From Candidatus Dojkabacteria bacterium (GTDB lineage: Bacteria > Patescibacteriota > Dojkabacteria > J137): DNA of 64,000 bases. The stretch lies in contig AP024679.1 of the NCBI GenBank assembly GCA_025999215.1, positions 101,645 to 165,644 of the forward strand, given 5' to 3'. The notes beneath the pieces were generated by a model. It was given only the letters and a program-made list of their open reading frames with translations. It was not told the origin of the DNA and did no database searches. Shown in pieces: positions 3,599 through 31,682 of the stretch (position 1 is the first letter of the stretch; each line of letters begins with the position of its first letter). Made by a program: the position numbers and the translations under genes.

Positions 3599-3665
3599 AT
3601 TGCGTTAAAGTACAATTTCTTCATTAATTTGATATGTTAATATTTGTTGTTTTAAAGAAAGTTTT

Positions 3666-9148: not shown

Positions 9149-10447
9149 ATGCCTTTAGATGTTAGACTGCCCAAAAGACCAAAAGACTTTAAAATCAACG
9201 AAAATGGTAACGGCAATGGCAATGGCAGATTGATTAAAAGAGTTACTTTTTTTGGCGATTCTGCAATACCTGAGGGGGATCCAATTTATGAATCAGTTTA
9301 TGAAGCTGCGAAACTTCTTGCTCAAAATGACTACATCATCGTAAATGGAGGCGGACCAGGACTTATGAAGGCAGCTACAGATGGTGCTGAGTCTGTCAAT
9401 GGAAAAACTAGCGCTGTATTTTGGGAACCAAAACTTGCATCATTTTTTGAAGGTAAAAATATTTCAAATGTTACTGACGAATCAACATCTTTTTCAAATT
9501 ACATGATGAGAACTTTGGGCTTGATAGAGCAGGGTGATGCATATATTGTGTGTAAAGGTGGAACTGGTACCATTTCAGAATTTGGAATGGTATGGGCGCT
9601 TGCAAAACTTTATTATGGTTCACACAAGCCTGTTATTTTGTATGGTGATTTTTGGGATGATTTAATAATTGCATTTCAAAAAACAATGTACATTGATGAG
9701 GTTGAACTGAGTGTTCTATATAATGCAAGAACTCCAGAGGAGATTCTTTCACTATTGAAAATTCACGAATTAAAGCTTAAAAATGTAAAATCAAGAGTTA
9801 GTGGTGATGAAGCTGGGTTTGTTTTGTCTACCGAAGCCAAAATTACAAGTGAGAGTTATGATAAATATGCAAGACATTACCATGCTGATAGGGCAGGTAA
9901 ACTGGTCGCTCAAGATCAGCTTGATGAGTTTATATCTCTAGTTAACCCCCCTGCAAAAGTTCTTGATGTTGGTTTATGCACGGGACAAGATGCATCTTAT
10001 CTTTCTAATCATTATTCAGTAACTGCGATTGAGCCATCAGCAAAGTTTTGTGAGATTGCAAAATTTGAATGCTCCAATGTTAACATTGTTCAAGGTGATA
10101 TAGTAAATTACGAACTAGAGCCAAACACGTACAAAGGTATTTGGGCAAGAGATTCAATTCACCATATTTCAGAAAAAAACCTAGATAAGGTATTTCAAAA
10201 ACTTTCAAACGCTTTAGTTGACAATGGCATACTTTATATAATTGTAAGAGAGGGTAGTGGTGAATTTGTAGAAGAGGAGGAAAAAAACTATACTACAAAA
10301 GATCAACCTTTGAAGCGATTTTATCATCTATTTACAGCTGAAGAACTTGTACAAAGAGCTGAAAAGGCTGGACTAGTTCTCGAAAAAATTGACCATACTA
10401 AAAGAAGCCATAAGTGGTTAGTTGGAATTTTTAGGAAAAAGGCGTAA
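9149..10447 (+). CDS. fusion protein: N-terminal LOG/TIGR00730 family (Rossmann-fold nucleotide-binding/phosphoribohydrolase-like) domain + C-terminal class I SAM-dependent methyltransferase
   Basis: LOG motifs GGGPGLMKAATDGA and KGGTGTISEFGMVW in residues about 40-200. MTase motif I VLDVGLCTGQD, motif II IVQGDI and motif III LVDNGILYI in residues about 250-400. Confidence 0.6.
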   Translation: MPLDVRLPKRPKDFKINENGNGNGNGRLIKRVTFFGDSAIPEGDPIYESVYEAAKLLAQNDYIIVNGGGPGLMKAATDGAESVNGKTSAVFWEPKLASFFEGKNISNVTDESTSFSNYMMRTLGLIEQGDAYIVCKGGTGTISEFGMVWALAKLYYGSHKPVILYGDFWDDLIIAFQKTMYIDEVELSVLYNARTPEEILSLLKIHELKLKNVKSRVSGDEAGFVLSTEAKITSESYDKYARHYHADRAGKLVAQDQLDEFISLVNPPAKVLDVGLCTGQDASYLSNHYSVTAIEPSAKFCEIAKFECSNVNIVQGDIVNYELEPNTYKGIWARDSIHHISEKNLDKVFQKLSNALVDNGILYIIVREGSGEFVEEEEKNYTTKDQPLKRFYHLFTAEELVQRAEKAGLVLEKIDHTKRSHKWLVGIFRKKA

Positions 10448-13791: not shown

Positions 13792-14991
13792 ATGGATCAA
13801 ATACTTAATACACTAAACGAACTGCTCCCAAAAATAAGAAGCTTGTTGGCTTACACTGACGAATTGCCTCAAAACTTTGATCAGGTGCTTCATGAAGTTG
13901 AAAAATCAAACCTCATGAATATTCTAAATAAGACTTTTCAAGAACTTAAAGGTAAGCAAGCCAGAATAGATTTTTTAGGTCAAATTTCAGCAGAAATCGA
14001 CAACCTTGATTTATATCCCGAAGATAAATATAACGGGAAGATGCTTATAGATGCTTTTGTAATCAATCATCCACTTTATTTCCCTGATAATCACCTGGGT
14101 ATATTTTCTATATCTTATTTTTTAATCCAAAAAGCAGACGCAATTGAAGATGGAAATTTTGCAAAGGATTACGGTTATAAATCTATTTTTGATTGCTTTA
14201 GTATTAAAACTAGTATTTGGGCTTCATATCTTTATAATCAAGTAATCAAAAAAGGAACATATTTCGAGGTAAAACCAGATTTGTTTTATATTGAAGTACC
14301 TAAAGAATCTAAACAAAGTTTGTATAATGAAAAAAGAGATGATGTGCTTATGCGCGATACTAATTTATTTTGGAACGTAAATTGGCTTTATGCAACAGAG
14401 TTTTACGATACTTTAGGAGAATTTAGCATTCCATATTACATATTTGGTATTGAGGAAGATAACAAATCAGAAAGCACAAAAATTTATCCTTACATGGTAC
14501 TTTCACTTTTATACCTATCGGTAGATAAAGAGTTACAGGAATCATCAGAAACAAAAAATGGACTGCCTTTCAATTTGAACTACTTGGTTACTGCAGATTT
14601 ATCTAGAAACAATAATTTTTTGAGCTGTTACTTGGATATTTTTACTTTAGCATATTTTAAAAATGAAGAAGATACCCAAAGTGAAATTTTGATTATGGAT
14701 TTCAAAACTAGGGCAAAGCATAATCCTAACTATTATACTGATTTAGAAATTTTTGTAAGATATCTACTAGCTAATACTGAAAATTTGCTAGAAATTTTAA
14801 GGCAAATTAACTTTAACTATAAAGAAGAAAGAGGAAAAGTAAATAAAAAAATACAAGAAGTTTGGGGCGATTTAAGTAAAAAATTAAATATCAAAGAAAA
14901 TTTTTCTGTTGAACAAAACGAGAAGCTTAAGAATGCTCTCATTAGGGCTTTTCTATATACTATTGAGTTGGAGGAGATGTTTTTGAAGTAG
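13792..14991 (+). CDS. hypothetical protein (first gene of giant-protein block)
   Basis: 399 aa. No signal peptide and no recognisable motif. Confidence 0.5.
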   Translation: MDQILNTLNELLPKIRSLLAYTDELPQNFDQVLHEVEKSNLMNILNKTFQELKGKQARIDFLGQISAEIDNLDLYPEDKYNGKMLIDAFVINHPLYFPDNHLGIFSISYFLIQKADAIEDGNFAKDYGYKSIFDCFSIKTSIWASYLYNQVIKKGTYFEVKPDLFYIEVPKESKQSLYNEKRDDVLMRDTNLFWNVNWLYATEFYDTLGEFSIPYYIFGIEEDNKSESTKIYPYMVLSLLYLSVDKELQESSETKNGLPFNLNYLVTADLSRNNNFLSCYLDIFTLAYFKNEEDTQSEILIMDFKTRAKHNPNYYTDLEIFVRYLLANTENLLEILRQINFNYKEERGKVNKKIQEVWGDLSKKLNIKENFSVEQNEKLKNALIRAFLYTIELEEMFLK

Positions 14992-15144
14992 ATTTTTATA
15001 TTGTTAGATTAATAATTTTTCAATCTTAAGTTTAGAGATGATTTCACCAAAATTCCGAATTTAACTAACTCTCCTTTTTTTTTGATTTAAAATGTAGTTT
15101 TGATATTATGTTGCCAAAGAATTTTATTTATAAAAAATTATTTT

Positions 15145-16098
15145 ATGGACAGCAACACGAACAACATAACGAAAAATTTAATCTTAGAATTTCTAAATAA
15201 TGAGTTATTTTCAAGTACTAATGGTGAAAATGCAGAGGAAAATCTACAAAAAATAAAACAAGGTATTCAGTCTGTTTTTGATAATGTTTTTAATAGTAAT
15301 TCTCAAATTTTTAAAAATTACCTCAATCAGATAATAAACTCTGTTAATAGTTCAGATGATACAGTCAAACGACAAATTTGGCTTGGTTTGAAATGTCTTT
15401 ACTCTTTTCAATTTGATCTAACACCCACAGAAAATGATAGTCCAATATTTTACTTTTCAATCTTAATCGAAACTTATGCTCCAGAATTTCAATCACTTTT
15501 TAAAAGTTTAGAAAGGAATATTATTGAACAAATTGACAACGAAGATTCTACATTTTTAGATATAATAATAGATTTTTGTAAAGTAACAGGCTTTTCAATT
15601 GGCGAATTTATACCTGAGCCGACTTCTAGTGTTATAGAAATGTCTGATGATTACACCTTTGAAAAAATAATTAAATTGTTTGAATTACTTCCAATTTCCT
15701 TAGAATACGATATAAATGTTGATATATTTGTTGCATCAATTTCAGAAAAAAGTTTAAACGAAATTTTTGATAGCATTTTCGATAATTATAATGTGCTTCA
15801 AAATTTTTTCTACAGTCTAATTAAAAAAGCTTTAAGAGAGTTAATAAACAACAAAGCTCACAAACCTTATATTAAATTTTTATTTTTTCTAGATAATTAT
15901 GGAGTTCACTTGATAGGCAGCGATGATAATTCTAAAAATTTACTTAATAAAAAACAAAATGAAATAAATGGTGAGATTTATTATGAAGATCCTGATAGTT
16001 TATCTATGTTTTTATGGTTGGCAAATAAATGTGAAGAAGATGTTAAGAATTTTTCTTTAATCATTTACACATCTGTTGTTGGTAAAGATTTTTTGTAA
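15145..16098 (+). CDS. hypothetical protein, paralog A of a duplicated 317-aa gene
   Basis: The ATG at 15145 matches the start of the second copy. The track ORF begins at an upstream TTG at 15100. Residues 1-204 are identical to paralog B and the C-terminus is diverged. Confidence 0.55.
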   Translation: MDSNTNNITKNLILEFLNNELFSSTNGENAEENLQKIKQGIQSVFDNVFNSNSQIFKNYLNQIINSVNSSDDTVKRQIWLGLKCLYSFQFDLTPTENDSPIFYFSILIETYAPEFQSLFKSLERNIIEQIDNEDSTFLDIIIDFCKVTGFSIGEFIPEPTSSVIEMSDDYTFEKIIKLFELLPISLEYDINVDIFVASISEKSLNEIFDSIFDNYNVLQNFFYSLIKKALRELINNKAHKPYIKFLFFLDNYGVHLIGSDDNSKNLLNKKQNEINGEIYYEDPDSLSMFLWLANKCEEDVKNFSLIIYTSVVGKDFL

Positions 16099-16370
16099 GT
16101 AAAATTTAAATATGAATATTTGTTATTAAAGAATTTTTTGACAATTGTTACAACTTATTATTGATTAAGTTTGAATCTTCTCTAACGCTAAAAAACAAGT
16201 GAAATTACGGGGATTTTATTATATCAGTAAATACTCTTCAAATATTAAAAACTATATTTTATTCGATAGTTCAAGAAAATTTTTGAGTATATTATTAGAT
16301 TTTTACAAATTAAGATTTTTTCTTTATTAAGAATTTTGAGCATGAAATACAAAATCAAAGGATATTTTGT

Positions 16371-16399
16371 TTGACAAATAAAAATGGAAAAAGTATACT
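16371..16399 (+). promoter_or_regulatory. near-consensus sigma70 promoter for the 1032-aa gene
   Basis: TTGACA-17 nt-TATACT ends about 30 nt upstream of the ATG at 16430. Confidence 0.4.
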
Positions 16400-16429
16400 T
16401 TGATAAATTTAGTTTTTAAATAGATAACA

Positions 16430-19400
16430 ATGGCTGAAAAAATGTCACAAAGTTCAGATACTACGCCAAACAATCTCCAAAAAGGGGAGAGTTCTGTAAG
16501 AGGACAAGAACGAACAGATCCGGCAAAAAGAATGGAAGAAATAAGCTCTGAAACCCATAATAAAGTTAATAATAGACAAGATGAAGAAGAACAGCATGAT
16601 GAAGGCGATAAACTACCAGAAGAGATATTATTAAGCGTTCAAAATTTGTTGAACCTCTTAAAAGGTGAGTACGAAGCTATATCTGGACAAAGTTTTAATG
16701 ATGAACAAAGTAGAGAAAATGCTGTTGTAGAAAGCATAAGTAATGATAAGGGCAAAATGTCTCAATTTGTCCAAGGCCTTAAAAGTCTAGAATTATTGCT
16801 AAAGGATAATATCTATCTATTACATTCAAACTCAAAAAGTATAAAATTAGAAGATTTGTTGAATGAGATGAATTTGTACATCCTTAGAGATGTTAAAATT
16901 CAAAATGGGGGTAAGTTTTTTCGAAAAAATAGAAATCTTGAAGAAGGTTATAGTGCTTTCTATCTATTACTAGATAAAGCTATAAATCAAAATGAGATAT
17001 CTTCCGAAACTTACTCAGCAATGTATACAAAATTACCTAAGCTTATAGAATGGTTGTATACAAAAGACAGAGCTTCATCCGAACAAGAAAAACCAAGCAA
17101 TATTTTTGAGGTTATTGAAAATTTTAGTGAAAATTTTTCAAGTTTTGACACTATTGACAGTGATGAGTTATCAAGTACACTTTCTGTTATGTTTAATTAT
17201 CTAAAAACTTCAATTAGCAGTTTAGATTTTGAAACGTTAGTAGAGAGTAAAGAAAAAGATCTAAAGAAATTGTATGAGCAAACAAAAACTCGAGGCATAG
17301 GCTTTATAGTTTTGCCATTTAAAGTTTTAAGTTTATTCAGGAAAAATTCACGGTTCTTCGCACTTGGTTTAAGTTATGAACAAGAACAAAAAATTATTTA
17401 CATTTTAAACTTTCTTGAAGAAATCATAACAACATATTTTAAAAAAAATTTTGGATTATATCAACCTAGTGAATTTAGGGAAAAATTTTATATATACAAA
17501 AACACACAAGAACAAAATCAAATTAATAAATATTTAAATGATAATAAATTTGTTTCAACTTTGTTTTGGTTTAGAATTTTTGAAGACGAATCTTATTCAT
17601 TAAATTCCAATTACTGGGAAATTATTGATAGTGCATTAAATTCTTACTTAACACCTAAAAAAAACAGAAGATTTTTTTTAAGAAGAAAGTCTGCTCCAAA
17701 AATTGGAGATTTTGAGGGATTATTTACAAACCCTAGGATTAGGGGTATGTTTGATATTTTTTCAAAGTCCCTGGATCTTTCTTACTCTAATGAAGAAGCT
17801 TCTACTATTTCAAACAAGATAAAAGATACACGTGAATTTTTTAATTATCTGTGCCATTGTGTCAAAGAAAGTTCTGGATCAGGGCTTAGTTTTGATAAAT
17901 TATTATCAGCAAGTTTTGATGAAATAATGGGTTTTGAATTAGATGCAGACATTTATACGTTACTTGAGGTAGCTGAAGATAACTTATACATTATTTTTAG
18001 AAGATTTGTAGAAAACATGAATTCGGGTTTTCAAAATGGTCAAGAAGTAGAAAGTAAATTTGCAGAATTAACTGAAATTGCAAATATGATGGAAGTATTA
18101 ATTAAAATGCTATATATATATGCTAATCAATCTAATAAATTAGAGGTTGTAAAAGAATGTGAATTAAAAATGAATGGTTTATTAGAAGGTTTTAAACAAT
18201 GGTTAACTAGTCCCTATAACAAATTATATTTTCTTCTTGCTATAGAAAATCCAGACCAGATAAAATCTTATGAAAATCCTGAAATTATTTTAAATTCTAT
18301 AGGAATTTTTAACGAGATTAGAAAAAGGTTATCAAGCTCTGAGCTTTATTCAACTAATGATACTGAAGATGTAATTAGAAGAAAGGATTATGTAGAGGCC
18401 ATAAATGAAAATTCTGTTTTTGTTAAAAATAAGCTTAAAGAATTAGCTGATCTGCTGCTTTTTATCAACAAAAATAAAAAACTTAACCCAGATATTCTGT
18501 ATAATTCACTAAAGTGGATGTCATTAATTTTTGATTCATTTGTTAGTAGTGAAAATTTTGATTATAACTATAACTTTAATTCCTTGTTTGATACAATTTG
18601 TAAAAAGCTCGAAATTCAAGAAACCCCTGAATATGCTGCATTGAGATTAGTTTTTAATTTATATCTTATTGAAAAAATTTCAAAAGAAAATAATTATAAT
18701 ACTATCAGCAATCCTGGAAGTTTTGAATTAGTCAATAATCCTTTTAATTATTTTAGACTAGCGTATAATGTTGCATCTAGTGTCTGGTACAGAAATGGTA
18801 AACCACATCTAACTCAAACAGATAAAGCGTATCTTTGTATTCTTCTCACACGTTTAGATAGTCAAACACATGGGAACGTGTCACTCTTATCCGAAAGTGT
18901 TATTAATGATAATAGTGAGGTTATGGAACAAATTAAAAATTTTAAAAGTGTGTTTAATTCATATAATGATAATGATAGAAAACTTATAGATCATCTACTC
19001 AGATATCAAGATGAAACTATACCTGATAATTTCTCGAGAGCTGGTATGTTTTTAATATTTCTACTTACAAGTAAAATTAAGCATTATTCCGTAATTATCG
19101 ATTCATTTTTTCTCGAGAAAATTGCATTGTTGTTAAAAATTCACCAAGAAGAAGCAAAACCAAATTCTGTTTTTAATCAATTAATAGATACAATTGGCGA
19201 TATAAAAAAATATCATTCTATCCTTAGATATTTTACTAATATAAATTCACTATTTTTTATAGTACCTAATGTTTCAGGGTTATCAGATAAAGATACTAAA
19301 CGAGTTAAATTGTTAGAATTTTTACGAAGGGTTAATAAATCTGAAAGTTATGATGATTTAGTTAATGATGATAAATCTGCAATTTCAAAAGCTGTATCCA

Positions 19401-19528
19401 TGTCTGGTTTGCAAGGTATCTTAAACATACAAGAAGAAGATGCTAAAGCTTTGGCATATCAAATTTTAAAGTTTATTTCAACAAACTTACCAAGTATGAA
19501 TATGCAATTGCAACAACAAGTTCTTTGA
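16430..19528 (+). CDS. large hypothetical protein (1032 aa), acidic low-complexity N-terminus, no signal peptide
   Basis: A long uninterrupted ORF with no P-loop or other recognisable catalytic motif. Confidence 0.55.
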   Translation: MAEKMSQSSDTTPNNLQKGESSVRGQERTDPAKRMEEISSETHNKVNNRQDEEEQHDEGDKLPEEILLSVQNLLNLLKGEYEAISGQSFNDEQSRENAVVESISNDKGKMSQFVQGLKSLELLLKDNIYLLHSNSKSIKLEDLLNEMNLYILRDVKIQNGGKFFRKNRNLEEGYSAFYLLLDKAINQNEISSETYSAMYTKLPKLIEWLYTKDRASSEQEKPSNIFEVIENFSENFSSFDTIDSDELSSTLSVMFNYLKTSISSLDFETLVESKEKDLKKLYEQTKTRGIGFIVLPFKVLSLFRKNSRFFALGLSYEQEQKIIYILNFLEEIITTYFKKNFGLYQPSEFREKFYIYKNTQEQNQINKYLNDNKFVSTLFWFRIFEDESYSLNSNYWEIIDSALNSYLTPKKNRRFFLRRKSAPKIGDFEGLFTNPRIRGMFDIFSKSLDLSYSNEEASTISNKIKDTREFFNYLCHCVKESSGSGLSFDKLLSASFDEIMGFELDADIYTLLEVAEDNLYIIFRRFVENMNSGFQNGQEVESKFAELTEIANMMEVLIKMLYIYANQSNKLEVVKECELKMNGLLEGFKQWLTSPYNKLYFLLAIENPDQIKSYENPEIILNSIGIFNEIRKRLSSSELYSTNDTEDVIRRKDYVEAINENSVFVKNKLKELADLLLFINKNKKLNPDILYNSLKWMSLIFDSFVSSENFDYNYNFNSLFDTICKKLEIQETPEYAALRLVFNLYLIEKISKENNYNTISNPGSFELVNNPFNYFRLAYNVASSVWYRNGKPHLTQTDKAYLCILLTRLDSQTHGNVSLLSESVINDNSEVMEQIKNFKSVFNSYNDNDRKLIDHLLRYQDETIPDNFSRAGMFLIFLLTSKIKHYSVIIDSFFLEKIALLLKIHQEEAKPNSVFNQLIDTIGDIKKYHSILRYFTNINSLFFIVPNVSGLSDKDTKRVKLLEFLRRVNKSESYDDLVNDDKSAISKAVSMSGLQGILNIQEEDAKALAYQILKFISTNLPSMNMQLQQQVL

Positions 19529-19911
19529 AATGATATCTTCAGTATTGATCTTTAATGAATAAATATTTATATAAATTTTAAAGGCACTTTACGAAACTTA
19601 TATGTATTTAACTGCAGAAGGGGTACTAGAACTTCCTTATGCTAATGTTGATTATAACAGAGTTGATAGAGTGTTTATATTAAAATTAGAACAATCATTC
19701 GAAAATGAAAGCAAAAAAGAAAAACAAGGTCAAATAAATTGAGTGCGCAGTTCTTATGGTATTGAATGATTTAAATACGAATCATAGCTACATTTATGTA
19801 AACAGTTATTTTATCTTGTTTAATTTTAATTATAGGGGTTAAATTTTATGTAGCAAATGTAGATTTTGATATTATGTTGTTAAGTTATTTTATTTGTAAA
19901 AATTTAATATT

Positions 19912-20865
19912 ATGGACAGCAACACGAACAACATAACGAAAAATTTAATCTTAGAATTTCTAAATAATGAGTTATTTTCAAGTACTAATGGTGAAAATGC
20001 AGAGGAAAATCTACAAAAAATAAAACAAGGTATTCAGTCTGTTTTTGATAATGTTTTTAATAGTAATTCTCAAATTTTTAAAAATTACCTCAATCAGATA
20101 ATAAACTCTGTTAATAGTTCAGATGATACAGTCAAACGACAAATTTGGCTTGGTTTGAAATGTCTTTACTCTTTTCAATTTGATCTAACACCCACAGAAA
20201 ATGATAGTCCAATATTTTACTTTTCAATCTTAATCGAAACTTATGCTCCAGAATTTCAATCACTTTTTAAAAGTTTAGAAAGGAATATTATTGAACAAAT
20301 TGACAACGAAGATTCTACATTTTTAGATATAATAATAGATTTTTGTAAAGTAACAGGCTTTTCAATTGGCGAATTTATACCTGAGCCGACTTCTAGTGTT
20401 ATAGAAATGTCTGATGATTACACCTTTGAAAAAATAATTAAATTGTTTGAATTACTTCCAATTTCCTTAGAATACGATATAAATGTTGATATATTTGTTG
20501 CATCAATTTCTGAGAAAAGTTTTATAGAAATCTTTGGCAGTATTTTTGATAATGATAATGAGCTTCAAAATTTTTTCTACAGTCTAATTAAAAAAGCTTT
20601 AAAAGAGTTAATAAACGACAAAACTCACAAACCTTATATTAATTTTTTATTTTTTCTAGATAAATATGGAGTTCATTTAATAGGAAGTGATGATAAATCT
20701 AAAAATTCACTTAATAAAAAGCAAGATAAAATAAATGGTGAGATTTATTATGAAGATCCTGATAGTTTATCTATGTTTTTATGGTTGGCAAGTAAATGTA
20801 AAGAAGATGTTAAGAATTTTTCTTTAATCATTTACACATCAGTTATAGGTAAAGATTTTTTGTGA
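19912..20865 (+). CDS. hypothetical protein, paralog B of the duplicated 317-aa gene
   Basis: 317 aa. The 5' two-thirds and the upstream leader are nucleotide-identical to copy A. Confidence 0.55.
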   Translation: MDSNTNNITKNLILEFLNNELFSSTNGENAEENLQKIKQGIQSVFDNVFNSNSQIFKNYLNQIINSVNSSDDTVKRQIWLGLKCLYSFQFDLTPTENDSPIFYFSILIETYAPEFQSLFKSLERNIIEQIDNEDSTFLDIIIDFCKVTGFSIGEFIPEPTSSVIEMSDDYTFEKIIKLFELLPISLEYDINVDIFVASISEKSFIEIFGSIFDNDNELQNFFYSLIKKALKELINDKTHKPYINFLFFLDKYGVHLIGSDDKSKNSLNKKQDKINGEIYYEDPDSLSMFLWLASKCKEDVKNFSLIIYTSVIGKDFL

Positions 20866-21045
20866 ATGATATTACAAAAAACACACATTTGATAACAAAA
20901 TGATTTTTATGGTTTAGCTTTAGTGGTCTAAATTTAATAAGTTTAAATCTTTTAAGTTGATCTAACTTATTAGTGATCATTATCAGAACATTAATGTAAA
21001 ATTTTATTTATTTTTTTTAATCAATTGTAATGTTAAAATTAAAAT

Positions 21046-24000
21046 ATGTCTCGAGGTAATCCTGAAAGGAATGGTTCGTATGAAAAACCTCCAAAAATAA
21101 ACCAGATACAAGATAAGGAACAATTAAGTTTTGTAATTCATAGACTTATTCATTTATTCCAAAATTTAGGTTCCTTACAAGAAACCGTTAATATAAAAGA
21201 ACAAGTTAATTATTTTAATAAAATTTTAACTACAGAGAATTTAAGAAAAATATTTGGTGAAGTATTATCGTATGATCCTTCAGATTTTGCTCAAACTCAG
21301 ACAGAGAAATCTCCAGTATTTGAAAATATCTCACAATTACTTAATCATTTAAGACTTAACTATCATTTGCTAAAGAATTTTATTAGAGCGGATAACCCAT
21401 TTTTCACGTATTTAGGACTATTGGAAATATCTGCCCAAAAAGATGAAACAAATGTAAAAGAAGCAAGTCAAACACTACCCAACAATGTAATTCATTTTCC
21501 AACTCCTGGTTTAACAAGCAACCCCAGTAATCAAAATGAAGAGCAGTCTGGCAGTACTGTATCTGAAACTCAAAATGATTACCGTTTTGATTTAAACAAA
21601 CTGATTATATTTATATCAAACCAGGATAATCCCGACCCTGAGAATATAGCAAAGCTGCTTAGATCTTTATCAGAAATACTTTCAACAAAAATAATGGATA
21701 TAAATCAAATGAAAAGAATTGGTGAGCTGGCTCAAATTTTCATCTCAAGAAGTAATCTAAAATCAGAAATTATAATACCTGAAAAACCTAAAAATACAAT
21801 AGAGAATGAAGAAATTGTAAATGCAGCTAAGTACCTTTTAGAAAAACCTGATAGCAAGTTTGGAAAACAAGAAAAAATTTTGGCTTTGAATGCGCTTTCG
21901 AATAATCTCACAAAGTTTCTAAAAAATACCCAAAAAGAAGATATTGAAACAAATTTTTTTACAAATTATATTCTCAACACAATTATTAATATTTACCTTA
22001 GTTCAGACGATGATAATCGAAAAATTATAGAGAATATTATTAATTCATTTAGTAAAGTAAGAAATAATGACGAAATACAAGCTTATTGGGAGTCTATCAA
22101 AAAAATATTTGACAGTAAAATTGCAACAAACTTTTTTGAAATTTTAGCAACAATTGAAATAGAAATAAAAAAATTATATGAAGAGGATATGAACAATGAG
22201 GACTTTGAAAATTTGTTAAGCAAATTAGATGAAGATAAAAAACTGATAATAATAATGATAATAAAAGATTTTTTAAGGTTTTACTTTAAATCAAAACATA
22301 ATAGGCTACATAATTATTTTAAAGTTATCTTTAAACAAATTTTTCAACTTCGGACAGAGATTGAAATTACGGATTCAGATATAAGTAAATTTGAAAGTAA
22401 TCTTACAACACTAAATGATTTACTAAACCCAAAAAGAAAAATGCTTGAAAAAGTTTTAGGCTCAAATTCAAAAATATCAAACATAATTGATCCAATTCGC
22501 AATTATATTTCTGTTTTAAAGAAACAAAAGTTCAGTAAACAAACTGAAAATATAGATACATCACAGATTAAAAATACCTCACCTAATACTTCTTCAGAAC
22601 CTTTATCAGAAAGAGCACGTATATTTAAAAGTAAAATGCTTGAAAAAGTTTCATTAAATTTAAGACGATTAAACCCAATTGATATAATTCGCAATTTTAT
22701 TTCTGTTTTAAAGAAACAAAAGTTCAGTAAACAAACTGATGAGTTCAGTGAACAAACTGAAAATATAGATACATCACAGATTAAAAATACCTCACCTAAT
22801 ACTTCTTCAGAACCTTTATCAGAAAGAGCACGTATATTTAAAAGTAAAATGCTTGAAAAAGTTTCATTAAATTTAAGACGATTAAACCCAATTGATATAA
22901 TTCGCAATTTTATTTCTGTTTTAAAGAAACAAAAGTTCAGTAAACAAACTGATGAGTTCAGTGAACAAACTGAAAATATAGATACATCACAGATTAAAAA
23001 TACCTCACCTAATACTTCTTCAGAACCTTTATCAGAAAGAGCACGTATATTTAAAAGTAAAATGCTTGAAAAAGTTTCATTAAATTTAAGACGATTAAAC
23101 CCAATTGATATAATTCGCAATTTTATTTCTGTTTTAAAGAAACAAAAGTTCAGTAAACAAACTGATGAGTTCAGTGAACAAACTGATGAGTTCAGTGAAC
23201 AAACTGAAAATAGGGAAGTAACAGAACAGGCTTCAGAATTTTTACAAAATGCACAAAACTATTATAATCTTAAAGAACTTAAAGATAAACGAACTTTTTT
23301 TGAAAGTTTTTTAGAATACTTGTTCCTGAACGAAAATATCGATAACATGAACAAATCTTTTGGAGTTGAAAGCAGAGATGAGATTTCAGATGAAGTTAGT
23401 AGAAATCAAATCGTAACTCAACTTTTAGAAAGTTGTAAAAACAAACAAAATTATTCAGATAATGAATTTTATACAAATTTTACAGGAATTTTTAGCATCG
23501 ATTTCAACCGGGATTTTGTGATTTTACTCAATTCAGATAAAATTGGTTATAAATTTAAACATTTTTTAATTGAATTATATAAAAAAAGAGTTAATGGTGA
23601 AATAGAAGGCACTAAGTTTTACGGTTTATTTTTAAAATTTCTTTTCTTAAATGAAGATGATCAGATAAAAGAATTGAAGTTGTTTGGTGAAGAATATAAT
23701 ATTACTGAAGAAGAAAAAAAAGAATTACTAGACATAATGGCAAAGTCAAGTGATTCGATTGTAGCTTTTTTATTTGGAAGCATAGAAGCAGTCTTTGGCC
23801 TAAAATTTTTAAACAATATTTCTAATGATATAAATATACCAAAAGTGCTCAAAAATTTTTTAATTAATTTATACGTAAAAAAAATAAACAACCGTGCAGA
23901 ATATAATTCAAGTGAAATGTTGATAAAATTTATTAAGTTTATGTTTTATTTTGAAAAAATTACAGATGAAGAAAAAAAAGAAATGTATGAACTTTTTGGT

Positions 24001-25041
24001 ATAGATAACATAGATCAAATTACTGAAGAAAAGAAAACTATAGTTGATTATCTTTTATCAAACGATAATATTTACTCGATATTTTTCCCTATTCGTTCAA
24101 ATTTTATAATAAGATGCCTAAACGACTTATCTTTTACAAAATTAAAACAATTATTTGAATATGTTGTCTTCAATTTTGATAAAACAAAAAACAGGCTAGA
24201 ATACATTAACGAAAATAATTGGCCTTTACACATCTTTAAATACCTTCTTTCGGGTGGAAACACATACACACAAATAGAAAATTTTTTTCCTTCACAAGAT
24301 GATCAACAAAACCTTGATATTAATGATCGGTACCAATTTTTACAAGATCTTGCAAATAGTTTCAAAAAATTTGGTATCGATACTAGTTCACTAACTGATT
24401 ATTATTCATTTGCTTATAGTATTTTAATAAATGAAGAAGTTGAAAATAAAATTAAAAACTTTATAATAAAAGTACATATTCTAAAATATGGTGTAAACAA
24501 TAAAAGCCAACATGAAATTTTCTCTAACTTTTTTCAGTATCTGATTTTGAATAAAAATGATGTTGAAGATATGAACGATCTTTTTGGTGTTGAAAGCAGG
24601 AGTGATATTTCAGACTCGGAAAGAGATATTATAATAGAAGAAATATTTACAAAACTTGGCAAGTTTTCCGATCGGTTTTTTCCTTACTACGCAAAACTAT
24701 TTTGGAATTGTGCATATGGTACTAATAGTCCAGATAAATTGAAAACATTTATGCATAACTATCTAAAAGAAAAACATTCATATATACATTCATATATATT
24801 TAATGACATGATTACATTTTTTAGAACTGGCAAAGATAATAATGAAGGACTCATAAGGAGTTTTTTTGAATTAGAAGATACACAAAATTTAGATGATGAT
24901 GATAAGAAGAAAATTATAACGTTTATTTCATCTGAAACAGACAAATATCCATATCTAGACGAAGAGAATCTCAAATATTTTCTTGAAGTTAAAGAAGAAG
25001 AGCCTAATCCAACCCAAAATCAAGATGACAATCAAAGTTAA
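21046..25041 (+). CDS. giant hypothetical protein (1331 aa) with in-frame tandem repeats
   Basis: No signal peptide. The N-terminal roughly 130 aa are homologous to the N-terminus of the 25187 ORF. Internal 70-aa tandem repeats are present. Confidence 0.6.
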   Translation: MSRGNPERNGSYEKPPKINQIQDKEQLSFVIHRLIHLFQNLGSLQETVNIKEQVNYFNKILTTENLRKIFGEVLSYDPSDFAQTQTEKSPVFENISQLLNHLRLNYHLLKNFIRADNPFFTYLGLLEISAQKDETNVKEASQTLPNNVIHFPTPGLTSNPSNQNEEQSGSTVSETQNDYRFDLNKLIIFISNQDNPDPENIAKLLRSLSEILSTKIMDINQMKRIGELAQIFISRSNLKSEIIIPEKPKNTIENEEIVNAAKYLLEKPDSKFGKQEKILALNALSNNLTKFLKNTQKEDIETNFFTNYILNTIINIYLSSDDDNRKIIENIINSFSKVRNNDEIQAYWESIKKIFDSKIATNFFEILATIEIEIKKLYEEDMNNEDFENLLSKLDEDKKLIIIMIIKDFLRFYFKSKHNRLHNYFKVIFKQIFQLRTEIEITDSDISKFESNLTTLNDLLNPKRKMLEKVLGSNSKISNIIDPIRNYISVLKKQKFSKQTENIDTSQIKNTSPNTSSEPLSERARIFKSKMLEKVSLNLRRLNPIDIIRNFISVLKKQKFSKQTDEFSEQTENIDTSQIKNTSPNTSSEPLSERARIFKSKMLEKVSLNLRRLNPIDIIRNFISVLKKQKFSKQTDEFSEQTENIDTSQIKNTSPNTSSEPLSERARIFKSKMLEKVSLNLRRLNPIDIIRNFISVLKKQKFSKQTDEFSEQTDEFSEQTENREVTEQASEFLQNAQNYYNLKELKDKRTFFESFLEYLFLNENIDNMNKSFGVESRDEISDEVSRNQIVTQLLESCKNKQNYSDNEFYTNFTGIFSIDFNRDFVILLNSDKIGYKFKHFLIELYKKRVNGEIEGTKFYGLFLKFLFLNEDDQIKELKLFGEEYNITEEEKKELLDIMAKSSDSIVAFLFGSIEAVFGLKFLNNISNDINIPKVLKNFLINLYVKKINNRAEYNSSEMLIKFIKFMFYFEKITDEEKKEMYELFGIDNIDQITEEKKTIVDYLLSNDNIYSIFFPIRSNFIIRCLNDLSFTKLKQLFEYVVFNFDKTKNRLEYINENNWPLHIFKYLLSGGNTYTQIENFFPSQDDQQNLDINDRYQFLQDLANSFKKFGIDTSSLTDYYSFAYSILINEEVENKIKNFIIKVHILKYGVNNKSQHEIFSNFFQYLILNKNDVEDMNDLFGVESRSDISDSERDIIIEEIFTKLGKFSDRFFPYYAKLFWNCAYGTNSPDKLKTFMHNYLKEKHSYIHSYIFNDMITFFRTGKDNNEGLIRSFFELEDTQNLDDDDKKKIITFISSETDKYPYLDEENLKYFLEVKEEEPNPTQNQDDNQS
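22440..23215 (+). repeat. in-frame tandem repeat inside the 1331-aa ORF: about 3.5 copies of a roughly 210-bp unit, with a nested 21-bp sub-repeat
   Basis: The units IRNFISVLKKQKFSKQTDEFSEQTENIDTSQIKNTSPNTSSEPLSERARIFKSKMLEKVSLNLRRLNPIDI are nearly identical at the nucleotide level. The 21-bp sub-unit encodes SEQTDEF and occurs 1-3 times per unit. Confidence 0.8.
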
Positions 25042-25186
25042 AATATAATGAATTATTACCATATTAAGTTTATAATTTGATACAATTAAGAATATAAGAC
25101 CAAACAAAAAAAATATGAAAAAGCACATCAAAGTTAAGTTTTTGTTACAATATGTTTTGAGAATAAATTTTATGTAAAAAATATCA

Positions 25187-28100
25187 ATGAATACATTCCC
25201 TGAATCTAGAAACCCAACTTTCAACCCTGAGGGAAATCAGATTCCTGTTCCTGAAAATCAGGACCAATTTATAGATTTAATAAAAAGTTATATTAGCTCG
25301 ATACAAAAATCAGATCAGGAGGGAAAATTATCACATTTTCGAAACTTAAGTAAAATTTTAACCATAAATAATATTATTGAATTTTTTAATATAAAGGATG
25401 ATGAAATTTATGATCCCAAAAATACAGAATCAGCAGAAAACATTGGAAGTGCCTCTGATTTAATAAATTATTTAAGGCATACACTAACCAACATATTACC
25501 CTTTTCATATCAAGAAGCTAACAATCCAATATTCCGCTACTTATTGTTAATAGAACAATCATCACAAAGCCTATCCAGTGAAAGCTCAGAAGTTGAAAAA
25601 AACGATCTAATAACGAAAGTTGACGTTATCTATAGTAAATTGTTAAAACTTATATCGCAATCAAAAATTAAAATTAAAGACATACCAATTCTTGTTGATG
25701 CTATTTTTCAATTTGAAAAACACCGCGTTTCATCTGATAGTCAAAAAATGTATGATAAGCTTACCCTAACATATAGAGTTGTTGAACTAATTTCAAAATT
25801 ATTTGAATTAACAGAAATAACTATTTATGAACCAATAGTATTTAATCAATTATTTGAAATTGTTTTCGACATAATACCTGAATCCTTTCAAAATTTAGAT
25901 CCAGAAGATTATGAAGGAATAATTGAAACTTTAGCTTATATCTATCAAGAATTTGTGAAAATAATAGATAAAATTTCAAAAAAAGATTTTAATAAAATAG
26001 ATTATAAAATAAATTATGAAAAAACTTTTAACGCATTAAATGAAGCATTTAAACAAAATAGTTTTTATACGCTTAGATTTGGTGCCATGATTGTTAAAAT
26101 GTTAGTGAAAATTAAACAAAAAAAACCTGAACAATTTACAAATATGGGTAACCAAATTTCAAAATTAGCTAAATCTTTAACAAATTCAAATCTTAATCCC
26201 TTATTAAATTCATTACAAACTATAGCGAATAAGAAAAGTGAACTAACTTTAGATGATTTAAAATCTGTTATTAACAACATTATTAACAATTTTTCATACC
26301 TAAAAGATATATTTCTAATTCTCGAAGAATTAAGAAGTCTTAATGATGCTACAGACATACGTTCGTTAAAATCAATTTCAAATTTAATTTCGAAAATTTT
26401 AAAAAAATTTGAACTAAAAGCCCAAGCCCGACAAAATAAAAAGATTCGTGGTGATATAAGACCTGTTTTTCCCTTTTGTAACAACCCACGTGAACTTTTA
26501 CATCAAAATACAAATGATCAAACAAAAAAAATTCCACCTGTGTTTAGAGCAAAGTTAGATGACTACCTTCTATTTGAACTTTTTCATCAACATACAAATG
26601 ATCAAACTGAAAACATTTCAACTGAGTTTAGAGAAAATTTAGATAATAACCGTCTACTTGAACTTTTAAATCAATATATAAATGATCAAACTGAAAACAT
26701 TTCAACTGAGTTTAGAGAAAAGTTGGTTAATTACTGTAATGAACTGGTGAATCCAAAAAAATTAATCGATCCTTTTTCAATATATTTCTTGTATATCCAT
26801 TTGAAAAAAATAAAATTACCGTGTATCCCTCGTTACTACAATTTTGATGAATTTAAAAATATCCTAAATAACGAGTTTCAAATACATATAGATTTAGAAT
26901 TGAATTCCATACAAATTGATGCAGTTTTAAGAATGTTCATTGAAAATAATTATCTAATAGATGCATCAGGAAATATCGATATGTTTACTCTCACAATTTT
27001 TTATCTTAAGCTTAAAGATTTTTATAAAACGAAAGGATATGAATTTGATGAAGAAATCTTTTTCAATATTTTAAAACTTTACGGTATTGAGAGAAGTGAA
27101 GTGACTGAGGGTGATGAAATTAAGTTTGATCATAGTGCTTTGAGGTTATATAGCATTTTTGCTTCAAATTCAACTCAAGAAAAAAATAAGGATTTTACTG
27201 AGCTCTTGGAAATTTGTATTGATTTGAAGAACAATGATGCAAGGTCTTTTCGTAGTAGTATAGCTAGCAAAGTGTCGAACCTGACTCTAGAAAATAAAAT
27301 AAACTTAATTATGCTTATAGCTGAAATAAAACCAAGATTTAGATTTTTTGCAAAATATGTGACACAACATTTATCGATTAGAAATGATCTATACTATCGC
27401 ATAACTTTAGAGTCTAGGATAGAATCTCTAGAATATGAACTAGCCAAATGGTTTGAAGAAAAGTTAAAAAATAAAAATCTTCAACTTGATGATGATACAC
27501 TAAAAGCCTTAGATTACATTCGTGAAACCTTAACAATCAATGTTTTAAATTTTTTAAAACAATTAAAAGAAAGTATTGACAAAGCTCTTCAATCAAGCTA
27601 CAACGAAGAAGTTGATAATACACAAATGAAGCTAAAAAATCAAGAAGGAATTCAATATACACCAACAGAACAGAGTGGTTTAAAATCGAGTGACGATCCA
27701 ACTAACCCCAAGCAAAGAACGCAAGCACTCGAACGCAGAGAACCTTATGTTACACCAAAAAGTAATAAAAATAATGAAGGAGAGGGAAATGTAGAAGTAG
27801 GAAGAAATGTAGAAGCAGGAGTAACAAGTTCTGAAAAAATTATAGACCAACTTGAAGCTATTTTGTTTTTAAAGACTTTTCTAGAGAAATATAGAACAGA
27901 TCTATTGGTGCGTGAAAAACAAAATGGATCAATATTTACAGGTGTTAAAGGGTTAGTTAGAAAAATTTCTGGGAATTCAATTCCATATCGTGTAAAGCAT
28001 GAAAAAAAAATACTTAGGGAAATGTATGTTCGTTACGGTGATGATCATATTAAAAGAATTTTAAAAATAATTGATGATCTATTAGGAGATGATAATTTTA

Positions 28101-30904
28101 AACAAACCGAGCAAGGCCAATGGATTATAAAAGCAATATCGTTGCTAGCCAATATGAATAATTTAAAAGGATATGGATTGAGTGATGTAGAGTCACACAG
28201 TTTAGCTTTTCCATCTATGCTTAGTAGTTTTAACTTGGAAAATATTCAGAGATTATTAAATGAAGGATCTAATACAAACATTGATACGCAAAAAACAGAG
28301 TCAGGTCAAGATATTCCGACTCAAATATTAAATTTAATAGAAACTTCTTTAAATTTTGTAGCACCGGATGATCTGAGAAGTTCTGCTATTAGTTTTCTAC
28401 AGTCTTTAAGCAACACTATTTCGGAACAAGAAGATACAGAAAAAAACACAACTGGTCAGCCTCTGCAAGAAGCTATAGAAGAAAAAGCCATTGATGAGCT
28501 TAGGAATGAATCTACTCTGCAAGCTCTGGTCGTTGCATTAAGTGATAAAAATTTTGTACCGAAACTTATTCATTATATTAAAAAACTTGAACAAATAGTT
28601 AAACCTGAACAAGAAACACCCGAACAAAAAAAGCCTGATCCTGTGGAGCATCCACTAATTAAAGCAACAGAGAGATTGTTAAATGAAGAGAGGGAAAAAG
28701 GGGAATCTGCAGATAGCTTTAAATTCAATTTGTACGATGCATTGTACTATGAATTTTTTTCTATTATACCAAATCTAAATGATTATAATATAAATGCTGC
28801 AAATCAAAATGAGCAAGATACAGGTAACAGCAACTCAACTGCAATTGTACCTTATGATCCACGAGCAAATGCTATTGTACCTTGGTCGGACCAAACATCA
28901 ATTAATTCTAATTTACCTAATGAGCCTACAAATGGAGGTGTAAATCAAAATGAATTGTTGATTATTAATAAGATAATTGAAATGGTTACATCACCAAATG
29001 TTGAAACTGGTGCTTCTATAGAAGACATTTTATCTGAAGCTGATAAAATTTATGCAAACTTTAAAACTTTAGAAAATATAATTAAAAATCAAGAAAATGA
29101 AGAACATTTAAAGAAATTAAACACATTCATTTTGATTGGTTTTATTCGACATATCATCCATAAAAGTAATGTAAATATTGAAAATCAAGGTGAGTCCGAA
29201 GCAGATGATCTTGATCTTAAGAATGCTGCTGCTATGTTTATTGCCTCACAAGGTCCTGTTATGATAGATTATGATTTATTAAAACTTATAACCGAAGACC
29301 AATACGAGGCCGTAAAAGATATGCCTGCTGATATCACTACACTGTTTGTAATAAAGTATTATCGTTGGGATTATTATCAATTCTATGATAGATTGGCTGG
29401 TGATCCTTCTTTAAGTGAAAATAGACTGATTATTTATAAACTTCTTTTGAAAAATGCACTTAGAATGGTTCTACAAGAAACCGCAGAAGATCAAGTTGAA
29501 GAAGTAACAACAATTAGAATTAAGAGATTTTTTGATTACATAGAAAATTTTCCAATAGATACTTTTAAAGGAGATGATGATTTATCTAATCTTATAAATG
29601 AACTTAAGAATAAATATATTGAATATTTAAGTTCAGATGATAAAAACAGCCATCACATAGGTAAAGTTCTAGAAAAAACAGATTTAGAAGAAGGTGATTT
29701 ACAGAAACTTTTGAGATATTTACTTGGTGATAACGCTTCTTTACCAGATACTAATACTATAACGTCATCAAATTATGAAAATGAAAATCCATTAGAACCT
29801 CCTTTCCAAAATCTTTTACAAAAAATAGAAGAAAATCCAAATATTGACTCGGATGTAAAGAATAATTTGACTAATCAGCTAAATAGACTGAGGGGCTTAC
29901 AAGAAGGACTTGATGCTAAGGTTTTAGATAGTATTGCTGTAAATATTAGTCAAACTTTGGAGAACTTAAAAAAAGTTTCTAGTGAAGAAAATTCACCTTT
30001 CCAAATTATACAACAATTGATAGCGAACTGCATTGATGAATCGTTATATAATGAAAAGAATAAACTCATTGCTTTTGCAATATTTCATAGAATACCAGAC
30101 ATTTTAAGTACTCACTTTGATACTTTTTGGAAACCCGCTTTAGAAAGTTTAATTAATTTTGCAGTGTTTACAGAAATGTGGAGTACCTCTAGTATTAATA
30201 CTAAGGTTTTAGAGAATTTCTTTAATAGTTTTAGTGAAAACGCTTCTAATGATTACTTAAACTCGTTAATAAATCATCTAATAAATAAAGTATTAAAAGA
30301 TAAAAGTACTGATAACGATAGTAATAATGAAGCAATTTATTATATTTGTCAATTTTTATTAAAAAATTTTTCAAAAGTTTCACAACAAAACTATGAATCG
30401 TTAAAAGAAGTTTTGGTTAAATTAGCTAGTTCATCTCGCGCTATTTTCAATAGTGTGCTTAAACCTTTGATAACGGAAAATATTTTTAGCCTTTTAAATA
30501 GTGGCGCTACAGAAAGTAGTGAAATCGTTAATAGTTCATTAGCTTTCAATATAGAGTTGGTAAATCGTTTATTTTTAGTAGCTAATAATGATTATGAATA
30601 TGGAAAAAATCTCTTCATTGAAATTTTTTTAGATGGTATTTTTAATCATTTAGAAAAGTTAGATAACCCAAAAAGTATTTCATCTCAAATTAAAACTATA
30701 TTCAATAAATTAGTAGATTTACCTGAACAATATAGGGTAGGGTTTATAACATCATTAAAAAAGAGAGTATATTGGTGCAAAGAGTACAATAACGGTGTTT
30801 ATAAATTTATAGAGCCTTATTTTCTGAGATTAGTGATTGATTGGTTCAATACTAATTCGATAGGCCAAGTATTTCCTGAAGGTTCGGATGTTTTAGAGCT
30901 CTAA
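25187..30904 (+). CDS. giant hypothetical protein (1905 aa)
   Basis: No signal peptide. The N-terminus is paralogous to the 21046 ORF (shared KILT...YDP...LxNxLR...NPxFxYLxLxE). An internal 28-aa x3 repeat is present. Confidence 0.6.
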   Translation: MNTFPESRNPTFNPEGNQIPVPENQDQFIDLIKSYISSIQKSDQEGKLSHFRNLSKILTINNIIEFFNIKDDEIYDPKNTESAENIGSASDLINYLRHTLTNILPFSYQEANNPIFRYLLLIEQSSQSLSSESSEVEKNDLITKVDVIYSKLLKLISQSKIKIKDIPILVDAIFQFEKHRVSSDSQKMYDKLTLTYRVVELISKLFELTEITIYEPIVFNQLFEIVFDIIPESFQNLDPEDYEGIIETLAYIYQEFVKIIDKISKKDFNKIDYKINYEKTFNALNEAFKQNSFYTLRFGAMIVKMLVKIKQKKPEQFTNMGNQISKLAKSLTNSNLNPLLNSLQTIANKKSELTLDDLKSVINNIINNFSYLKDIFLILEELRSLNDATDIRSLKSISNLISKILKKFELKAQARQNKKIRGDIRPVFPFCNNPRELLHQNTNDQTKKIPPVFRAKLDDYLLFELFHQHTNDQTENISTEFRENLDNNRLLELLNQYINDQTENISTEFREKLVNYCNELVNPKKLIDPFSIYFLYIHLKKIKLPCIPRYYNFDEFKNILNNEFQIHIDLELNSIQIDAVLRMFIENNYLIDASGNIDMFTLTIFYLKLKDFYKTKGYEFDEEIFFNILKLYGIERSEVTEGDEIKFDHSALRLYSIFASNSTQEKNKDFTELLEICIDLKNNDARSFRSSIASKVSNLTLENKINLIMLIAEIKPRFRFFAKYVTQHLSIRNDLYYRITLESRIESLEYELAKWFEEKLKNKNLQLDDDTLKALDYIRETLTINVLNFLKQLKESIDKALQSSYNEEVDNTQMKLKNQEGIQYTPTEQSGLKSSDDPTNPKQRTQALERREPYVTPKSNKNNEGEGNVEVGRNVEAGVTSSEKIIDQLEAILFLKTFLEKYRTDLLVREKQNGSIFTGVKGLVRKISGNSIPYRVKHEKKILREMYVRYGDDHIKRILKIIDDLLGDDNFKQTEQGQWIIKAISLLANMNNLKGYGLSDVESHSLAFPSMLSSFNLENIQRLLNEGSNTNIDTQKTESGQDIPTQILNLIETSLNFVAPDDLRSSAISFLQSLSNTISEQEDTEKNTTGQPLQEAIEEKAIDELRNESTLQALVVALSDKNFVPKLIHYIKKLEQIVKPEQETPEQKKPDPVEHPLIKATERLLNEEREKGESADSFKFNLYDALYYEFFSIIPNLNDYNINAANQNEQDTGNSNSTAIVPYDPRANAIVPWSDQTSINSNLPNEPTNGGVNQNELLIINKIIEMVTSPNVETGASIEDILSEADKIYANFKTLENIIKNQENEEHLKKLNTFILIGFIRHIIHKSNVNIENQGESEADDLDLKNAAAMFIASQGPVMIDYDLLKLITEDQYEAVKDMPADITTLFVIKYYRWDYYQFYDRLAGDPSLSENRLIIYKLLLKNALRMVLQETAEDQVEEVTTIRIKRFFDYIENFPIDTFKGDDDLSNLINELKNKYIEYLSSDDKNSHHIGKVLEKTDLEEGDLQKLLRYLLGDNASLPDTNTITSSNYENENPLEPPFQNLLQKIEENPNIDSDVKNNLTNQLNRLRGLQEGLDAKVLDSIAVNISQTLENLKKVSSEENSPFQIIQQLIANCIDESLYNEKNKLIAFAIFHRIPDILSTHFDTFWKPALESLINFAVFTEMWSTSSINTKVLENFFNSFSENASNDYLNSLINHLINKVLKDKSTDNDSNNEAIYYICQFLLKNFSKVSQQNYESLKEVLVKLASSSRAIFNSVLKPLITENIFSLLNSGATESSEIVNSSLAFNIELVNRLFLVANNDYEYGKNLFIEIFLDGIFNHLEKLDNPKSISSQIKTIFNKLVDLPEQYRVGFITSLKKRVYWCKEYNNGVYKFIEPYFLRLVIDWFNTNSIGQVFPEGSDVLEL
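26500..26745 (+). repeat. three tandem copies of an about 84-bp in-frame repeat inside the 1905-aa ORF
   Basis: HQNTNDQTKKIPPVFRAKLDDYLLFELF, HQHTNDQTENISTEFRENLDNNRLLELLN and QYINDQTENISTEFREKLVNY. The second and third copies are nearly identical at the nucleotide level. Confidence 0.7.
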
Positions 30905-31201
30905 AGGTATCATACCACCTATAGAAGTGATGAGTCGAGTGGTGAAATTAATCCTGCTAAAGCTTATCTGTATATTTATCATGTAATTGATCCAGACGGA
31001 ACTTATGAAAAGTGTAAGGGTAAAATTCCGTATATTTTTCCTGAATTTAATCAAGATAATATAGATCAAGTTAATAATCCTTTAGACGAATTACTAGAAA
31101 ACTTTATTAAAGAGGAGGTTAAGAAAGGGTCCAATAACAAACAAGATAGTTCTGATGATTCCTTACCTTCAAACCCTTCTGAACAAAACATTGAAACATG
31201 A
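30905..31201 (+). other. 98-codon in-frame open extension directly after the TAA stop of the 1905-aa ORF (possible readthrough or recent nonsense mutation)
   Basis: The same frame as 25187..30904 runs with no stop and no ATG/GTG/TTG from 30905 to a TGA at about 31199. The composition is coding-like and D/E/N/S-rich. Confidence 0.35.
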
Positions 31202-31682
31202 GTGTAACCTACAACACCCTCAAATTAGGTTTAATATACCTGAGAGGAAGAAGGAAGACAAAAGTATATATGAAATAATATATTAAAAGAAAAAAAATAC
31301 AAATGAAAAATTTAAGGAACAATTTCTTGAATTTGTACAAACGACTCTGGAGCAATTACTTGATATTAATAAAGATCAGTTCAGTGCGATGTATGATGGC
31401 ACGAATGAAGCAATTTTAATTTCTGTAAACTTCTTGTATCCCTATATCATATTGAAAAAGATATAGATTAAAAAAACAAAAAAAGGGGAGTAATTGAATA
31501 AAAAACAATTGTTAATTTAACAGATTTATACTCAATAACAAGGTAATTTGGTGTAGAATATAAAGCATGGCTTTGTATAAGTTTGATTAGTTTATGCAAG
31601 CATTGTAGGATAATGTAATATAAAAATATATTGTTTTCTCAATTTTCGTTGAAGTAAGTTGAAATTGTGTTTATAATACCTT

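Follow-up and report, generated by a model that had tools for sequence, protein, structure and literature searches.

How can two neighbouring copies of one bacterial gene be identical, letter for letter, over their first 600 coding nucleotides and then diverge by roughly 10% over the rest? The question is raised by a 317-codon gene that is present twice, as copy A (15145-16098) and copy B (19912-20865), in the genome of an uncultivated member of the Dojkabacteria, the metagenome-assembled genome (MAG) 'Candidatus Dojkabacteria bacterium KatS3mg085' (an 862,240-nt contig). The analysis covers a window of 64,000 nt of this contig (AP024679.1, positions 101,645 to 165,644), and coordinates are counted from the first nucleotide of the window; both copies and the neighbouring genes and segments described around them lie on its forward (+) strand. 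Here we propose that the two genes are older paralogues that were probably homogenised over a 601-nt tract by a recent interlocus gene conversion.

The two genes form a direct repeat (approximately 15081-16140 and 19844-20911 by local alignment and a repeat finder) with a start-to-start offset of 4767 nt, and the pair brackets an orphan gene of 1032 codons (16430-19528, product BCX13593.1). Copy A encodes BCX13592.1 (KatS3mg085_124) and ends in TAA, while copy B encodes BCX13595.1 (KatS3mg085_127) and ends in TGA, and the two 317-aa proteins are 94.6% identical. The start codon of copy A is the ATG at 15145, in agreement with the length of BCX13592.1, and not the TTG at 15100 given by a mechanical finder of open reading frames (ORFs). 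No third copy or fragment of the gene is present in the window. The duplicated unit, about 1.02 kb long, comprises the 317-codon gene with a short leader before it and a few bases of flank on its 3' side. Copy A and copy B are followed by genes (1032 and 1331 aa) that have no similarity to each other; had these been duplicated together with the unit they would still be about 90% identical, and therefore only the unit of about 1.02 kb was duplicated.

The tract of perfect identity occupies 15143-15743 in copy A and 19910-20510 in copy B. It contains no mismatch in 601 nt, begins 2 nt 5' of the ATG and gives way to divergence at nucleotide 600 of the coding sequence (CDS), at codon 200/201. Immediately 3' of it, the segments 15744-16106 (copy A) and 20511-20873 (copy B) differ at 35 of 363 nt (90.4% identity), with the first amino-acid difference at residue 204. 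On the 5' side, the leader of copy A (15091-15144) is a diverged homologue of the leader of copy B (19855-19911), matching at 35 of the 42 positions in 15098-15139 (about 83%), with 1-nt indel(s) and a mismatch at 15142 in addition. Homology is gone upstream of about 15091 and fades within about 10-40 nt past the stop codons. The tract is thus sharply bordered at both ends by diverged homologous sequence, and its ends adjoin the most mismatch-dense patches of the alignment, namely the leader on one side and 15744-15780 on the other.

The original prediction, made from the sequence alone, had described a direct duplication of about 1 kb around the 1032-aa gene with an abrupt switch from identity to divergence, and pairwise alignment bears out both points. 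It had extended the identity over the leader and the first ~610 nt of the CDS, of which the CDS part holds (first 600 nt) and the leader part does not. It had also placed the switch near codon 205, with 85-90% identity thereafter; the switch exists, but lies slightly upstream, and the identity beyond it just exceeds that range. The two peptides that it quoted, ISEKSLNEIFDSIFDNYNVLQ and ISEKSFIEIFGSIFDNDNELQ, are both found in the translations. Divergence is clearly not uniform over the duplicate (0 of 601 versus 35 of 363 mismatches).

Chance is ruled out as the source of the 601-nt run, since no identical run was longer than 377 nt in any of 200,000 trials that scattered the 36 mismatches at random over the ungapped block of 967 nt. 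At the divergence rate of the 3' segment, 601 nt free of mismatches would have a probability of about 3e-27. A different possibility is that no recombination took place and that the 5' 600 nt are held identical by strong selection, either on an N-terminal domain or on a nucleotide element, with the C-terminal part diverging freely or under the diversifying selection that had been suggested for it. The border does lie inside the protein, at residue 200, where a domain boundary could fall, and a low-confidence structure model shifts from all-helical to mixed near residue 250. Nei-Gojobori counts of nonsynonymous (dN) and synonymous (dS) divergence between copy A and copy B nevertheless contradict this account. 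In codons 201-317, dN is 0.063 and dS 0.237 (dN/dS 0.27), and the mismatches are distributed 7:6:18 over codon positions 1:2:3, so that this C-terminal segment is under purifying selection and diversifying selection finds no support. In codons 1-200, dS is 0, with no change at the approximately 117 synonymous sites of the tract, where about 24 synonymous differences would be expected at a dS of 0.24. Selection at the protein level leaves synonymous sites unprotected and therefore cannot explain the identity of the tract. As for a nucleotide element, none is present among Rfam families, and an invariant element of 601 nt starting 2 nt before an ATG would be without precedent. The contrast at synonymous sites effectively refutes an origin of the tract without recombination, to which we give next to no credence.

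The divergence between the copies is informative in a second respect. Both are real protein-coding genes under purifying selection, as their dN/dS demonstrates; direct evidence of this kind is rare for an orphan gene, and is useful here since no relative of the protein could be detected in any database searched.

Consensus errors classically arise at repeats, and the sequence comes from a metagenome assembly. The tract could accordingly be an artefact: in reality the copies would differ throughout, or there would be one copy only, and the 5' 601 nt would have been made alike or doubled by metaFlye or in its consensus step. An independent contig argues against this. Logan contig DRR290133_77655 (3896 nt), located by way of the 1032-aa gene's exact product and built by another type of assembler (de Bruijn) than metaFlye, matches 16044-19939 of the window at 100% identity. 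Its left end (16044-16073) is the last 30-mer common to both copies before the mismatch at 16074/20841, and its right end is formed by the opening 30-mer of the perfect tract (19910-19939). With a k-mer length in Logan that we take to be 31, the contig ends k-1 = 30 nt inside the shared stretches, which implies that the reads contain each of the two sequence contexts. The path of the contig further implies that the reads hold the tail of copy A, the 1032-aa gene and the leader of copy B, with identity starting at 19910. Copy-specific bases and both junctions are present in this contig of run DRR290133. No further Logan contigs were returned when the contig index was queried with the exact products of copy A, copy B and the neighbouring Zn-peptidase. 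The two copies are also followed by unrelated genes, and their stop codons differ. The KatS3 sample, a hot-spring sediment at 52 °C, was sequenced with PacBio HiFi (read N50 10,544 nt; DDBJ DRA011957 / PRJDB11609), and metaFlye 2.8.3 was used for the assembly (PMC9671151). The N50 of 10.5 kb is about twice the 4.77-kb spacing of the copies, long enough for reads to cover both copies together with unique sequence on either side, the MAG being linked to this HiFi dataset by the sample name KatS3 only, as mg085 is absent from the text of that paper. An assembly artefact, which the original prediction had named as a possible undoing of the pattern, is very unlikely on this evidence.

With chance, selection and assembly weighed, the mosaic is probably the result of recent gene conversion between the paralogues, as had been suggested for the 5' part. 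It is supported by the absence of synonymous differences in the tract beside a dS of 0.24 in the adjoining codons and by the diverged sequence at both borders, and the RecJ encoded in the window may be listed in its favour. In the proposed course of events, the unit of about 1.02 kb would have been duplicated some time ago, its copies now lying before the 1032-aa gene and before the 1331-aa gene, and the copies would then have diverged, the 3' coding portion by about 10% and the leader by about 15%. A recent homologous recombination of the non-reciprocal kind (interlocus gene conversion, to which a double crossover between sister chromosomes would be equivalent) would have overwritten 601 nt of one paralogue with the sequence of the other, so that every difference between codon 200 and the position 2 nt before the ATG disappeared. 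Heteroduplex extension would have stopped where homology drops, which would place the ends of the tract at the mismatch-dense patches. We infer both the mechanism of recombination and the recency of the event from this pattern.

Several points weigh against gene conversion as described. Two sequences, with no outgroup or population sample, do not tell donor from recipient or date the event, and conversion would look the same, at the level of sequence, as other recombinational routes to the same mosaic. Support at the level of reads concerns only the left edge of the tract, through the k-mer break, and RecA lies outside the window, within which only RecJ is seen.

The other routes comprise unequal crossing-over via a triplication or deletion intermediate that later resolved, a recent partial re-duplication by which the 5' part was replaced, and long-term concerted evolution through repeated events, and we consider it unlikely that one of them produced the tract. 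The 3' segment is uneven, with 10 mismatches in the 37 nt of 15744-15780 and 25 in the 326 nt that follow (P = 0.03 by change-point permutation and P = 0.001 by Fisher's test), which hints at more than one event, and three perfect 213-nt tandem repeats in the adjoining 1331-aa gene suggest that recombination or slippage is active locally. The change-point signal is however weak and was chosen post hoc, and two sequences cannot tell these routes from simple conversion. The same unevenness (P = 0.03) is a weak hint that the far 3' part (15781-16106) may have been converted earlier, and hence that concerted evolution may be ongoing rather than confined to a single event.

Two further explanations were considered and rejected. 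A mobile element (insertion sequence, miniature inverted-repeat transposable element or prophage) as the repeated unit is not indicated, with no Pfam or PHROG match, no flanking inverted repeats, no match to phages or viral contigs and no tRNA gene in the window. Antigenic or phase variation of the cassette type is likewise not indicated, with no silent cassette in the window or in public protein databases, and no export signal or transmembrane segment in the protein.

Gene conversion of duplicated genes is well known from other bacteria. In tufA/tufB and the rRNA operons, duplicates that lie dispersed or close together are kept identical over all or some of their length by RecA-dependent conversion, including at synonymous and neutral sites, with an abrupt end at the edge of homology. 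The present pair is similar in that identity reaches synonymous sites and ends abruptly. The difference is that tufA/tufB and rRNA genes are highly expressed and universally conserved, and their homogeneity is arguably selected, whereas the gene described here is lineage-specific and homogenised over two thirds of its length. In Neisseria pilE/pilS and Borrelia vlsE, a surface protein encoded at one expression site is diversified by segmental conversion from many promoterless silent cassettes. Segmental conversion between homologous copies likewise makes mosaics in those systems, but each of the two copies here is of full length and begins with a leader and an ATG of its own, and conversion homogenises rather than diversifies them.

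In the PE/PPE genes of M. tuberculosis (pe_pgrs27/28 and ppe18/ppe19), interlocus gene conversion was resolved with PacBio long reads, and in the same study recombination between interspersed repeats gave a 7.3-kb duplication (PMC12046097). The present case is alike in the proposed non-reciprocal transfer between paralogues within a chromosome and in the resulting mosaic gene that exactly matches the other copy, and the 7.3-kb duplication is the kind of rearrangement that the 601-nt repeat here could cause. It is unlike the PE/PPE case in that donor and recipient could there be assigned from an outbreak sample with ancestral states, in genes of a known and large family whose proteins probably act at the surface or in immune interaction, whereas here there is one genome with two copies of an orphan family lacking a signal peptide.

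All the marks that interlocus gene conversion leaves in the sequence of a single genome are present at this locus: the paralogues lie on the same molecule, the tract is bounded, and identity extends to synonymous sites. The locus is a clean, apparently long-read-resolved instance of segmental gene conversion in a ~0.86-Mb genome from the Patescibacteria (the CPR, or candidate phyla radiation), and on our reading it shows homologous recombination between paralogues to operate in such reduced genomes. The process is a known one and the example ordinary, with no new mechanism or question attached. The 601-nt perfect direct repeat deserves to be flagged, as it would provide ample substrate for RecA-type recombination, and deletion or amplification of the intervening 4.77-kb segment would be mechanistically reasonable.

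The leaders of the two copies share a conserved 25-nt block, AAATGTAG(-/A)TTTTGATATTATGTTG, which carries an extended -10-like TGnTATTAT and does not occur again in the window. A promoter-like site is located at 15082-15109 in the leader region of copy A, with TG ahead of the second hexamer, and the block may thus be a promoter-like element of the duplicated unit. The best sigma-70-like site of the region is found elsewhere, at 16371-16399 (TTGACA, 17-nt spacer, TATACT; 11 of 12 matches), 31 nt 5' of the ATG of the 1032-aa gene and inside a palindromic stretch, and this gene may have its own promoter there. Between the 1032-aa gene and copy B, a small ORF of 46 aa (19602-19742; gene call at 3559-3699 of the Logan contig) has no counterpart upstream of copy A and no family match; in this region the NCBI locus-tag series jumps from _125 to _127, with no _126.

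The protein encoded by the two copies is soluble, acidic and probably mostly helical. A word-indexed search of 5.8 billion proteins returned only its own two copies, a full HMMER search of 1.84 billion representatives returned no other relative, and JGI metagenome contigs and IMG/VR contained none. No match was above curated cut-offs in Pfam, PHROGs, PADLOC or NCBIfam, and the best match among PDB sequences had E = 0.24. The protein has neither a signal peptide nor a transmembrane segment. A single-sequence AlphaFold2 model had a mean predicted local distance difference test (pLDDT) score of 44, too poor for fold comparison.

Both copies belong to an island of about 17 kb (13792-30904) with six genes on the same strand in five orphan families, encoding products of 399, 317, 1032, 317, 1331 and 1905 aa. 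Its guanine-plus-cytosine (GC) content is 26% (25-28% in the composition profile), compared with 31-36% in the flanks. The products are acidic (isoelectric points 4.4-5.5) and lack signal peptides, and in a crude hydropathy scan only the 1331-aa product had a hydrophobic window, a single one of 19 residues. None has a family above the curated cut-offs of the four collections named above. The 1032-aa and 1905-aa proteins have no relative among the 5.8 billion proteins, the 1032-aa protein has no phage match, and the 399-aa protein has no metagenome relative. The gap between the genes for a Zn-metallopeptidase and histidyl-tRNA synthetase, which holds the island, is 18 kb here versus 0.2-3 kb in six related Dojkabacteria genomes, where it contains small ordinary genes; no remnants of these genes were found at this site. 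Judged from these comparisons, the island is lineage-specific and sits at a variable site. In a collection of species-representative genomes that does not include the source genome, the closest Zn-peptidase is 61% identical, so that there is no close relative of the source lineage for comparison. The idea that the island is compositionally foreign was rejected: its low GC arises mostly at codon positions 1 and 2, through amino-acid composition, GC at third codon positions (GC3) is 0.18 versus 0.22 in core genes, synonymous codon usage is near that of core genes, and recent import is not indicated. The 778 nt between the island and hisS (30905-31682) have a GC content of 28%, no ORF of at least 60 aa, no Rfam match and no remnant of the relatives' genes.

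A function for the duplicated gene can be sketched from the order of the genes, from where the border lies and from the lack of export signals, though we regard it as highly improbable. The 317-aa protein would be a modular adaptor or chaperone partner of the giant orphan protein encoded next downstream of each copy, with a shared 200-residue N-terminal domain kept identical by conversion and a 117-residue C-terminal part (17 differing positions) matched to its own partner of 1032 or 1331 aa. The island would encode cargo proteins without signal peptides in an episymbiotic CPR bacterium, and a VirD4-like coupling ATPase could conceivably handle them. The gene for such an ATPase lies 1 kb upstream of the island, and its conservation in relatives that lack the island weakens its link to the island. 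Since it is conserved in relatives, this ATPase is itself judged not to be island cargo. In two related genomes (L006, 7762-9812, and L009, 1-1120), the VirD4-like gene appears as two abutting tblastn segments in different frames with an overlap of 4-8 nt, which may reflect a frameshift or a sequencing error.

The two largest genes of the island contain internal repeats. In the 1331-aa orphan gene (21046-25041), downstream of copy B, the 213-nt (71-aa) unit mentioned above is present in 3.1 tandem copies at 22529-23186 (99-100% identity), with nested 21-nt sub-repeats at the joints. This is a further indication that recombination or slippage has acted very recently in the island. At residues ~727-1240 of the same protein, four diverged modules, each of some 105 aa, can be recognised by eye (F..F[LI].[YF][LM]F[LY]NE ... 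LFG[VIE][ED]). The 1905-aa gene carries an 84-nt tandem repeat at 26491-26724 (2.8 copies, 86% matches). The N-terminal regions of the 1331-aa and 1905-aa proteins (about 130 residues each, encoded at 21046-21450 and 25187-25570) are weakly similar (36% over 84 aa; E = 6e-4 in a database of six proteins), and the two may be distant paralogues. A module common to the island proteins, suggested by an NPxFxYLxLxE-like motif seen by eye and by these modules, was rejected, as the 317-, 399- and 1032-aa proteins scored no better than shuffled controls against hidden Markov models of the N-termini (1331-aa and 1905-aa proteins) and of the four ~105-aa modules.

No tRNA genes or Rfam families were detected in the window, the remainder of which is ordinary chromosome encoding aminoacyl-tRNA synthetases, RecJ, a P-type ATPase, rpoB/rpoC, IF-2, thioredoxin reductase and others. 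Two fused genes occur in it. A 432-aa ORF (9149-10447) joins a SLOG/LOG-like domain to an S-adenosylmethionine methyltransferase and is conserved at related Dojkabacteria loci, and a single 350-aa ORF (58646-59698) joins Sua5/YrdC to TsaE, both of N6-threonylcarbamoyladenosine (t6A) synthesis. A gene of 2638 codons contains a 149-nt direct repeat (52055-52203 and 53024-53172), whose copies lie 969 nt apart and are 93% identical.

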